A DNA stretch of 63,858 bases, the filler included, from Reclinomonas americana ATCC 50394 (Eukaryota), in assembly GCA_048213135.1 (NCBI GenBank). It is 7 parts of 3 records of this genome, joined end to end, with 100 filler letters (N's around TTAATTAATTAA, not from the genome) between each part and the next. Parts side by side here need not be neighbours in the genome. Positions count along the whole stretch, not along the records: positions 40,301 to 49,198 come from PS015215.1; 6 more parts are not named here. One strand, 5' to 3'. Of the stretch, positions 42,221-44,566 are shown piece by piece. Both the position numbers and the translations under genes were made by a program. Position 1 is the first letter of the stretch; each line of letters starts with the position of its first letter. Below the pieces are notes generated by a model. It made no database searches. It was not told the origin of the DNA and saw only the letters and a list, made by a program, of their open reading frames with translations.

Positions 42221-44566
42221 TTGATTGTTGTTCCGGAGCCGGCAATGGCCGACCATGCCGTGGCTGCGTGCGTAAACTACCTGCTCATCAACCCGCAAAT
42301 GCGACGGCTGTCTCTCGTCAGTTGCGCCGTTTTTTTTTCTCTACTCCTGTCCTCCCTACCCTCCCTTGTTCACTTTTTGCCGACCACAGGCCACGACATT
42401 TCCTCTGCTGGCATGATGCGCCTCGCCGAGGCCGTGGAACATGCCGGTCACATGACGGACCTCGACGTCCGCATGAACTTTGTCAATCGGCAGGCTGTGC
42501 TGCGACTGCAGGAGTGCGCTCGTCGCACCCCATCACTTCGTTCGCTGCGCTACACGGACCCCGAGGCCGCCGAGGCGTATCGCGTCGCGTGCAAGGAACT
42601 CGCCGCTGCCAAGCAGGAGTTTCAGGAGGTCAAGAGCTTCACCACGCCGACCCTGCCAGTGTTGTTTGTGATGCGACAGGTGCGACTCTTGTGCCGTGAA
42701 CGAGTCGTGTGTTGGGGATACTCACTGTGGTGTGGTGGTGGTGGCAGATTCTGACCACTCTTGGCGACGTGGAGCCGCATCGCGAGTTGAGCTGGACGCA
42801 AGTCAAGCGGCACTTGGGTTCCTTCAGTCGCCTGCCTGAGCGCCTGCTGGCGTTCGCCATGCACAATGTGACCGCGTTGGCAGCGGATCCGTCGCGCCTG
42901 CGCCCGTGGACTGTGGCTCCCGATCTGGATCCGGCACCGCTGCGTCGCGCCTCGATGGCGTGCTTCCGTGTGGCATCGTTCTTCCAGGCACTGCACGGCG
43001 TGCTCGTGTCGGGTCGCGAGCAAGAGGATCTGTTGCTGCAGAGGCGCACCAGCCAGCACGAGCAGCGACTGCAGCGTGAGGCCAGCAGTGGAAGCCTGTC
43101 GCCGCGTTCGCCTCGCTCCCCGCTGTCACCGCGCTCTCCTCTGTCGCCAAGGACGCCGCGCAGTCCACTGTCGCCGCGCGGTTCGCTGTCGCCTCGTGGT
43201 GCCGCCGCGGCGGCCACCGCCGCCGCTGGCGGCAATGGCAATCCACTGTCTCCACGCACTCCGCGCTCCACTCTGAACCGCGCCAACTCAATGGACAGCA
43301 GCAGCTCGCTGTCGCCACGCGGTGGCACCGGCAACCGACGCGCTCCGCTCTCCTCACGCACCCGTGCACCATACGTCGGTGACCTGTTCAACGCCTTTTT
43401 CGACCTTCCCGACATTTGCCATTCGCGCATCATCTCGTTCCTGCCGGTGGAGACGACACAGCGCATCTGGAAAGTGTCGCGCGCGTTTTTCCGCATTCTT
43501 CGTTGCGTCTTTTCTTTCTTTATTTCCTTATAACAGCCGTCATCGCATCGTTGCTGACTTATTCCGTGGGTGCTCAGGCGCGCACGTCACCGCCGTGATC
43601 TTCTCCGGACCGACTCTGAGTGTGTCCAGCGTGGAAAACCTCGCCTCGCTGACCTCTCTGTCGGTGCGACCCGGGTGGCCGCGCATCGGCGACGAGGGCG
43701 TCATGGTCGTGTGTGCTGGTCTTCGCTATGTTTCGTCACGCTACTGCCTGCACTTTCCTCCCCCTCGCTCCATCTGACTCTCTGTGTGTGCAGTCGCGTC
43801 GAGTGCGCGAGTTGCGACTGAAGGACCAGGACATTACGAAGCGCGGTGTGCGAGTCTTGATTGACGCGCTGCAGCGATCGCCACACATCGAGGTGGTCGA
43901 CTTGCGCATGAATCCCATTGATCTGGAGGGTGTGGAGGAGCTGCGGCAGTATGTGCTCGAGTCGTCGACACTGCGCTCGGTGCTCATCACAGGTTTGTGA
44001 CGCATGGTCGCACACGCATGGTCTCCCGTTGCATCGCTCACTCGGTCACTCTTTGCGTGCTGCAGAACCGGACCTCAGCTGCCAGTTTGCTCAAGTCCGC
44101 ACGGAAGCGCTGCGCGAGTCTGAACTGAAGGAGTTGCTCAAGTTCATCAGGCCACCGCCGCCAGTGGTCGACGTGATGGAGGAGCTGATGCAGACGCTGT
44201 CGGTGTCGGTGGCCGGCGAGTTGCACGCTGCGTCGCGGTGGAACTTTATCACCAAGTCGCTGCGTGGCTTCAATGGCAGCCTGACGCGCGCCATGGAGAT
44301 GCTGCCGCACAATAGCGCTCTGTGCACCGAGGAGCGTCTGCGGCCGTGGACCAATCCAATCTTCCACCCAGTTGCGCCCTGTCCGTCCCCATGCTTTTTA
44401 GTTGTTTGCCCTCTCTCACCCTCCGCACTCGCAGCCGACGTTGCGACGCTCGTCGACGGCCGCTGCCGCTGTGGCGCTGTATTTCCGCGGTCTCAACGCC
44501 GTACTCATGGCCGACCTGGAACTCGTGCCGGCGGCCGCCGAAGTCGTCGACAATCGCGCGCGTTGA
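42221..44566 (+). CDS. RNI-like LRR - dynein MTBD-like - SP-rich linker - F-box-like - LRR - dynein MTBD-like protein (5' partial)
   Basis: LRRs ISSAGMMRLAEAV..MTDLDVRMNFV and ITKRGVRVLIDAL..IEVVDLRMNPIDLEG. F-box-like FDLPDICHSRIISFLPVETTQRIWKVSRAF. Two modules EVKSFTTP..V..VM..ILTTLG..SW..VKRHLG...RRASMAC and ELLKFIRPPPPVVDVM..RW...RRSSTAA. TGA at 44564-44566. Confidence 0.7.

Follow-up and report, generated by a model that had tools for sequence, protein, structure and literature searches.

A gene of Reclinomonas americana encodes a duplicated unit of LRRs and a module with profile homology to the dynein microtubule-binding domain

[quoted passage not shown] It sits in a long antiparallel coiled coil on the AAA+ ring, and its affinity is governed by sliding of the stalk helices, which is controlled by the AAA ring. 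F-box/LRR (FBXL-type) proteins are substrate receptors of SCF ubiquitin ligases and carry an F-box followed by LRRs. The LC1 protein belongs to another LRR class than the RI type. According to passages of PMC4642857, LC1 is an LRR protein seated on the MTBD of the outer-arm dynein heavy chain.

Here we describe a gene of Reclinomonas americana ATCC 50394 whose domain architecture is real and unusual and combines known parts. The gene lies in a window of 63,858 nucleotides, the whole stretch of DNA that was analyzed, which was joined from seven parts of three records of assembly GCA_048213135.1 and along which all positions are counted. Two modules of the gene product share a profile match with the dynein heavy-chain MTBD (part of PF12777). 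However, they do not sit in a long antiparallel coiled coil on an AAA+ ring; they are paired in one chain, each directly after RI-type LRRs, and as exon pieces they are too diverged to be detected by Pfam or by single-sequence searches. As in FBXL-type proteins, an F-box-like motif directly precedes LRRs matching LRR_6, whereas here the motif is sub-threshold and internal, an extra LRR block lies upstream, and an MTBD-like module follows each LRR block. The likeness to LC1 consists of an LRR domain next to a dynein MTBD, as described in parts of PMC4642857 and PMC10205576. Unlike LC1, which is a separate polypeptide, the RI-type LRR here is fused in cis, and a contact between LRR and module is conjectural.

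The gene comprises seven exons on the plus strand (42245-44566), separated by six GT-AG introns of 64-76 nt each. Its open frame of 1908 nt across these canonical introns encodes a product of 635 aa and contains one stop codon, which is terminal. Exon 1 as visible (42245..42320) encodes an LRR helix and strand, and exon 2 (42390..42679) encodes LRRs and then the start of MTBD-like module 1. The remainder of module 1, a linker and the F-box-like motif are all encoded by exon 3 (42748..43501; 251 aa). The second half follows in exons 4 (43578..43729), 5 (43794..43992), 6 (44066..44370) and 7 (44435..44566), and the stop codon (44564-44566) directly ends the protein after module 2. The peptide strings quoted in the original prediction were all present in plus-strand frames where it had placed them.

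The 5' end of the gene is cut by an assembly gap of 20 N (42201..42220), taken from the list of N runs. The gene had earlier been taken to begin at 42221, which is the first base after this run; the start is probably lost in the gap. Between the gap and the ATG at 42245, which is possibly not the true start, the frame stays open. The first visible residues align to the middle of a second-half LRR, and this, together with the gap, suggested that the gene is probably 5'-truncated. The 635 aa are thus a minimum length for the protein, whose N-terminus is lost in the gap. The flanking genes encode a kinase and an Hsp70, both on the opposite strand. The same gap also removes the 5' part of the upstream kinase gene, whose exons (41454-42040, minus strand) are without the N-terminal subdomains.

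A duplicated LRR and helical module had been predicted, and comparison of the two halves of the spliced protein bore this out. Residues 1-213 and 410-621 were found to be colinear; over 216 columns they are 30.1% identical (E=3e-24). In each half, an LRR block of the RI type comes first, and a helical module of about 115-140 aa comes next. The modules alone are 34.2% identical over 117 columns (E=7e-15). Aligned by Smith-Waterman, the modules scored 140, compared with 29.7 +/- 5.4 in shuffles, and none of 1000 shuffles reached 140. The likeness was also detected in unspliced exon pieces, both between the LRR pieces of the two halves (E=6e-8) and in the middle of the modules (E=2e-4). The short terminal module pieces gave no alignment to each other by BLASTP, and the comparison of exon 2 with exon 6 gave no match. 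Exon junctions of one half are spanned by an unbroken exon in the other, so the duplication also validates the splice model. An hmmsearch of 1617 six-frame pieces recovered the source exons only and no further copy of the module or the LRR in the window.

No AAA or dynein family was found in the flanks or in the 130 other ORFs of the window, in agreement with the original prediction that no AAA ring lies beside the modules. Unlike a dynein heavy chain, the visible protein has no AAA+ ring and no long coiled-coil stalk in its chain. The accompanying claim that there is no stalk holds for the long stalk, which is absent, but short helical stubs are kept on both sides of each module. These results bear on the possibility that the locus is an artefact, that is, a mis-assembled or decaying fragment, such as a piece of dynein joined to an LRR gene, which is not expressed as modelled. 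Some room for this is left by the draft scaffold, which contains 21 N runs, one of them adjoining the LRR/MTBD-like gene, and by the failure to find an identical protein in protein collections. Such an origin would be hard to reconcile with an open frame of 1908 nt over six canonical introns, a junction of LRR and module inside a single exon, and flanks and 130 window ORFs free of AAA-domain remnants. Moreover, the two copies of the unit have stayed intact and colinear while diverging to 30% identity, and this speaks for prolonged selection to keep the frame. We therefore regard an artefact as highly improbable.

We characterized the LRR blocks with Pfam and with a profile of our own. The first-half RI-type LRRs are encoded by the first part of exon 2 (42390..42556, plus strand), the piece that matched the second-half LRR exon above. 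Exon 4 carries the presumed end of the F-box and, after it, the opening second-half LRRs, which were recognized from the gene model and by eye from the LRR pattern; alone, it was without a Pfam match. The remaining second-half LRRs, in exon 5, gave the sole Pfam match to LRR_6 (E=6.8e-4; 19.9 bits, under the Pfam cut-off of 23.4). A profile combining the first-half and second-half LRR pieces matched 70 PDB sequences at E<=1, led by ribonuclease inhibitor (E=2e-10), LRRC34 (1e-8) and DRC5 (5.4e-8) in that order; the repeats belong to the RI/LRR_6 type, as had been proposed. The LRRC34 and DRC5 sequences come from PDB entries 9fqr and 8glv, which also contain axonemal dynein heavy chains.

Module 1 begins in the last part of exon 2 (42554..42679, plus strand), which encodes a CC1-like helical stub and the first helix in an ORF continuous with the LRR. 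Its rest is encoded by the first part of exon 3 (42748..43092, plus strand), as delimited by profile alignments to dynein MTBDs. The conserved Arg-Ala-Ser..Ala-Cys stretch lies in this part, as does a CC2-like stub formed by a long C-terminal helix. A helical stub and most of module 2 are encoded by exon 6, based on the ESM Atlas and the profiles described below. Exon 7 completes module 2 with its last helix and also encodes a CC2-like stub and the stop, based on the gene model and the spliced alignment, where exon 7 and the end of module 1 are colinear. In an alignment with DNAH6 inspected by eye, a Pro in exon 7 lies 16 residues past the aromatic residue aligned to the dynein Trp.

The modules had been likened to the stalk-tip MTBD of dynein, and profile searches supported this relationship. 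Profiles were built solely from exon pieces of the window and searched against 177,635 PDB sequences. With the two-row profile, A2, 15 matches were obtained at E<=10, and 12 of the 15 were dynein heavy chains, all matched at the MTBD (best E=0.0032). The three-row profile, A4, gave 27 matches, including 23 named dynein that were matched at the MTBD and one 4191-aa 'AAA+ ATPase domain-containing protein', in which residues 2838-2927 were matched. DNAH6 (9fqr) ranked first among the A4 matches, at residues 2785-2899 (27.4 bits, bias 0.0); addition of the 42554-42679 piece thus improved the best dynein match from E=0.0032 (A2) to 2.6e-5 (A4). The A4 matches included the isolated MTBD entries 8i3j (the DNAH1 MTBD), 2rr7, 3j6p, 6kio, 6kjo and 3j1t, and the outer-arm beta chain (7kzm) was among the other PDB matches. 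The dynein match spans about 100-115 residues, from the helix preceding the Pro-Pro turn to the Ser-x-Ala-Cys helix and into the next helix. The profiles are chimeric, with N-terminal columns mostly from module 2 and C-terminal columns from module 1 only, so the dynein homology applies to the module type and not to each copy separately. Exon 7 is absent from the searched profiles, and adding it misaligned the module alignment.

A protein-language-model search of the ESM Atlas with exon 6 alone pointed to the same family. PF12777-bearing clusters accounted for 28 of the 30 hits, and the top score was 0.95 with 183 of 256 features shared, a high score that is weakened by the low 'recognition' value for module 2 (1699). 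The ESM Atlas search with the module 1 piece gave no usable match. Single exon pieces searched against the PDB by phmmer found no dynein at E<=10, and Pfam PF12777 gave no match at E<=10 on six exon pieces, which are fragments only, as both modules are split by introns. Taken together, the profile matches establish homology of the module type to the dynein heavy-chain MTBD at the level of sequence.

Structure prediction was applied to the module pieces. AlphaFold runs on two-row alignments of exon pieces gave low-confidence models (mean pLDDT 43.3 and 62.6). A helix was predicted over residues 62-114 of the exon 3 piece, where the pLDDT of the block was 63-96 and rose toward its end; elsewhere the values were poor. 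Searched against the PDB with Foldseek, these low-confidence piece models had no match at E<=0.001, and dynein was not among the matches listed. The predicted order of helices, again from low-confidence models, is compatible with the dynein MTBD. The modules may fold like an MTBD.

The likeness to dynein could instead reflect convergence or chance, in which case an unrelated helical Leu/Arg/Ala-rich domain would follow the LRRs. The silence of PF12777, the absence of dynein among the single-piece matches and the uninformative structure models would fit this explanation, as would an exhaustive phmmer search with exon 6, which found 0 proteins at E<=0.001 among 1.84 billion representative proteins. 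However, the best A4 match reached E=2.6e-5 against 177,635 sequences with a bias of 0.0, and the 23 of 27 matches named dynein were all at the same domain. Six isolated-MTBD constructs of 108-277 residues were matched, so target length is no explanation. In addition, the dynein hypothesis preceded the search, and an independent method, the ESM Atlas, indicated the same family. Convergence or chance thus appears quite improbable.

A different possibility is that the modules descended from the dynein MTBD, lost microtubule binding and now act as protein-protein interaction or scaffold domains. They may, for example, pack on the neighbouring LRR in cis, as LC1 does on the outer-arm MTBD. The homology is low-level (27 bits at best) and divergence is high, with 34% identity between the copies and no single-piece dynein match, and an LRR lies immediately before the module in both halves. 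The seating of the LRR protein LC1 on a dynein MTBD, described in passages of PMC4642857, offers a precedent. On the other hand, conservation among the two copies and dynein is strongest in the first-helix/Pro-Pro region and in the Arg..Ser-x-Ala helix. The tubulin contacts of mouse dynein, given in part of the published account as K3298 on H1 and R3382 on H6, are placed in these best-kept regions, a placement by region and not by residue. We consider loss of microtubule binding unlikely.

A Ser/Pro/Arg-rich linker (43093..43395, plus strand) separates module 1 from the F-box-like motif. Spliced residues 200-345 contain 13 of the 16 SP/TP sites, the first at residue 240, and 12 sites fall within 43093..43395. 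The linker is probably disordered. Short DNA repeats are present in it at 43154-43193 and 43201-43226. The F-box-like motif (43396..43501, plus strand) corresponds to positions 1-33 of the 43 positions of the Pfam F-box and is cut by the next intron. On this stretch, PF00646 was the only Pfam family matched (E=0.0025; 18.1 bits against a cut-off of 20.5); scored on the whole of exon 3, it gave E=0.05. The stretch had no match among PDB sequences. The motif is internal; in the visible protein it lies near residue 342, and the LRRs of exons 4-5 are directly C-terminal to it. The prediction of an F-box before the second LRR block therefore stands in part: the sole Pfam match and the LRRs that follow favour it, whereas the score is below the cut-off and a PDB match is lacking. 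From the sequence, we consider an F-box probable. A single exon encodes the LRR together with the start of module 1, and another single exon encodes what remains of module 1, the linker and the F-box-like motif, so these fusions are independent of splicing.

We also searched for relatives of the gene product. Among 8000 candidate longer proteins, exon 3 had no homologue at E<=0.01, and profile A4 had none at E<=1 among 8000 longer candidates and none at E<=1 among 230 candidates of near length. Two metagenome scans gave 439 and 266 pattern matches, and 0 were confirmed by tblastn. In the open-access literature, no report of a non-dynein MTBD protein was found, and no description of the LRR/MTBD-like/F-box arrangement.

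With modest confidence, we favour the explanation that the locus is a genuine spliced gene and that its product is a non-motor protein, in which a duplicated unit of RI-type LRRs and an MTBD-homologous module is combined with a linker and a probable F-box, and which acts as a microtubule-anchored adaptor or substrate receptor. The protein would have arisen by an old internal duplication of the unit made of an RI-type LRR block and an MTBD-homologous helical module. Each module would retain short helical stubs in place of dynein's long stalk. The two units would be connected by the Ser/Pro/Arg-rich linker, which is probably disordered and has 13 phosphorylation-type sites of the proline-directed kind, and the probable F-box would precede the second LRR block in the arrangement of F-box/LRR proteins. 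The modules may bind the microtubule lattice, and two of them on a flexible tether tunable by phosphorylation could provide bivalent attachment. The LRRs, together with the F-box if it is functional, could recruit a partner, for example Skp1/SCF, to microtubules or axonemes. In this way the protein would act as an adaptor or substrate receptor anchored to microtubules, with no role as a motor.

A bolder proposal, which we put forward as speculative and doubtful, is that the MTBD is portable and autonomous. Two copies, each paired with an LRR as in LC1-MTBD, would then anchor an F-box/SCF receptor on the microtubule or axoneme lattice through a phosphorylation-tuned SP/TP tether. If true, the non-motor MAPs would gain a new class, one in which ubiquitylation is coupled to the dynein footprint on tubulin. 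The proposal also touches on whether the MTBD was an independent domain before it was inserted into the dynein stalk, or alongside that inserted form. A motor-less protein with two MTBDs would show that the domain works, or gets re-used, alone, and would offer a natural minimal MTBD for biophysics. With the F-box, it would suggest a direct way to place a ubiquitin ligase adaptor on dynein's tubulin site.

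Open reading frames and the DNA itself delineate a seven-exon gene on the + strand between 42221 and 44566, with exons at 42245-42320, 42390-42679, 42748-43501, 43578-43729, 43794-43992, 44066-44370 and 44435-44566. Its six introns measure 64-76 nt and all follow the GT-AG rule, and the spliced frame of 1908 nt consists of 635 codons followed by a single terminal stop. The GC content of the window is mostly 0.51-0.61, and the DNA is eukaryotic. The source is a draft scaffold, and the window contains 21 N runs, including a run of 20 N just upstream of the gene (42201-42220). The first visible residues of the protein align to the middle of an LRR of its second half in the spliced alignment, and the true N-terminus was therefore most likely lost at this gap. 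A protein-kinase gene on the - strand (41454-42040, Pkinase E=9.4e-9) runs into an (AG)46 repeat at 42072-42163 and then into the same gap. Since its N-terminal exons and subdomains are absent, real sequence must lie within the gap. Elsewhere, 44-N runs occur in six pairs, the two runs of each pair lying exactly 12 bases apart (18952-19051, 26029-26128, 40201-40300, 49199-49298, 56994-57093 and 59687-59786); such regularity suggests masking or scaffolding more than ordinary gaps.

We compared the two halves of the gene, which had been described as a duplicated LRR and helical module. At the level of unspliced exon translations, the LRR portion of exon 2 matched exon 5 (29% over 55 residues, E=6e-8) and the helical part of exon 3 matched exon 6 (34% over 47 residues, E=2e-4), while the short terminal pieces of the modules gave no BLASTP alignment on their own. 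After splicing, residues 1-213 and 410-621 aligned colinearly (30.1% over 216 columns, E=3e-24, computed by script), and the two modules alone reached 34.2% over 117 columns (E=7e-15), bearing out the duplication. The Smith-Waterman score of the module pair was 140, compared with 29.7 +/- 5.4 in 1000 shuffles, none of which reached 140. Intron positions differ between the halves, so each exon junction of one half is spanned by an unbroken exon in the other; the splice model is therefore independently supported. With draft sequence and a gap at the 5' edge on one side, and an open frame across six canonical introns and two intact, colinear copies on the other, we regard an assembly or annotation artefact as highly improbable. 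Because the intron positions differ and only 30% identity remains, the duplication can be recognised as an old one, in which both copies have retained an open frame.

Profile matches assign the repeats to the ribonuclease-inhibitor type. Pfam LRR_6 matched once, below its cut-off (E=6.8e-4, 19.9 bits versus 23.4), and a profile combining both LRR exons as two rows retrieved 70 PDB sequences at E<=1; the best was ribonuclease inhibitor (2e-10), ahead of LRRC34 (1e-8), DRC5 (5.4e-8) and NLRP LRR domains. F-box/LRR proteins carry an F-box followed by LRRs. Here too, LRRs directly follow a stretch at 43396-43494 whose F-box match (E=0.0025) is the only Pfam match of the region and spans model positions 1-33 of 43, ending at an intron. 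The predicted F-box is probable; the match stays below the cut-off (18.1 bits versus 20.5) and falls to E=0.05 on the whole exon, and phmmer with the stretch found nothing in PDB. The linker between module 1 and the F-box is rich in Ser, Arg and Pro and contains small DNA repeats; 13 of the protein's 16 SP/TP sites lie within spliced residues 200-345.

The helical modules had been likened to the microtubule-binding domain (MTBD) at the stalk tip of dynein heavy chains. On single exon pieces, neither Pfam PF12777, which includes the MTBD, nor a phmmer search for dynein among PDB sequences gave a match at E<=10, and exon 6, searched exhaustively by phmmer against 1.84 billion representatives, matched no protein at E<=0.001. 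An ESM Atlas feature search with exon 6 placed 28 of 30 matches in clusters carrying PF12777 (top score 0.95, 183 of 256 features shared, low 'recognition' value); nothing usable came from the module 1 piece. We then built module profiles solely from window pieces that overlap mid-module and jointly span the module, and searched 177,635 distinct PDB sequences. The first, A2, combined the start of exon 3 with exon 6 over 157 profile positions. Of its 15 matches at E<=10, 12 were dynein heavy chains, all aligned at the MTBD (best, Chlamydomonas outer-arm beta, residues 3217-3323, E=0.0032). Adding the end of exon 2, where module 1 starts, gave profile A4 and raised the signal: 23 of 27 matches were named dynein, with DNAH6 best (residues 2785-2899, E=2.6e-5, 27.4 bits, bias 0.0), and isolated MTBD constructs were among them (8i3j, 2rr7, 3j6p, 6kio, 6kjo, 3j1t). 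Another was a 4191-residue 'AAA+ ATPase domain-containing protein' (residues 2838-2927); the remaining three were a prolyl 3-hydroxylase and two retro-aldolases. The aligned region begins with the helix ahead of the Pro-Pro turn, takes in the conserved Trp helix and the 'N-P-x-F-x-P ... S-x-A-C' stretch, and reaches into the next helix. Exon 7, which is in no module profile, has a proline 16 residues past the aromatic position aligned to dynein's Trp, as does DNAH6 by eye. Homology to the dynein MTBD is established at the level of sequence profiles and, the profile being chimeric, holds for the module type and is not proven for each copy. Set against the failed single-piece searches, the dynein matches leave chance or convergence an improbable source of the likeness.

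Structure prediction was less informative. AlphaFold models of exon pieces from two-row alignments had mean pLDDT of 43.3 and 62.6, and Foldseek on them found nothing meaningful, so the structural comparison proposed with the original prediction did not confirm an MTBD fold. Predicted secondary structure shows short helices in series between longer ones, among them a helix spanning residues 62-114 in the module 1 piece (block pLDDT of 63, increasing to 96 near its end). This pattern is compatible with an MTBD bearing short stalk stubs, and no more. The modules were said to lack a stalk coiled coil; helical flanks are present (about 20-27 residues N-terminal and 25-50 C-terminal), but they are far shorter than the dynein stalk. 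For mouse dynein, contacts with tubulin are reported at K3298 on H1 and R3382 on H6 (PMC4987762, PMC4230729). That the modules were re-purposed and no longer bind microtubules is possible, if doubtful.

Module 2 is followed by the stop codon, and the flanking genes lie on the opposite strand; downstream, tail to tail, is a multi-exon Hsp70 gene (45400-47500, - strand, PF00012 E=6.8e-75 and 5.4e-46). Among the window's 150 longest ORFs free of N, we scanned 130; the other 20 lie within 39324-47765, a stretch covered by separate examination. At E<=1e-4 the scan yielded only IP3/ryanodine-receptor, ion-transport and cadherin domains and coiled-coil families, with no AAA or dynein family, in agreement with the noted absence of an AAA ring. 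When the window was searched locally with the module profile, no additional copy turned up. The channel domains belong to a large IP3/ryanodine-receptor-type gene with exons at 24301-35437 (+ strand; Ins145_P3_rec at 24301-24732, E=1.6e-9; Ion_trans at 34766-35437, E=7.2e-7). The cadherin match, in an ORF at 13551-14198 (- strand), is below threshold (E=2.3e-5, 25.1 bits versus 28.8), as are the coiled-coil families (CENP-F_leu_zip, Rab11-FIP3, GAS), the only matches of a 303-aa ORF at 59789-60697 (- strand).

No relatives were found in any collection searched, and the open-access literature searched yielded no account of a dynein MTBD in a protein other than dynein. It does include work on LC1, a light chain of LRR type that binds a dynein MTBD. 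The parts of this protein are known; their combination is not. We lean towards a non-motor adaptor whose two MTBD modules, derived from dynein, would attach it bivalently to microtubules, possibly under control by phosphorylation, and whose LRRs, together with the F-box if functional, may bind partners such as Skp1/SCF.
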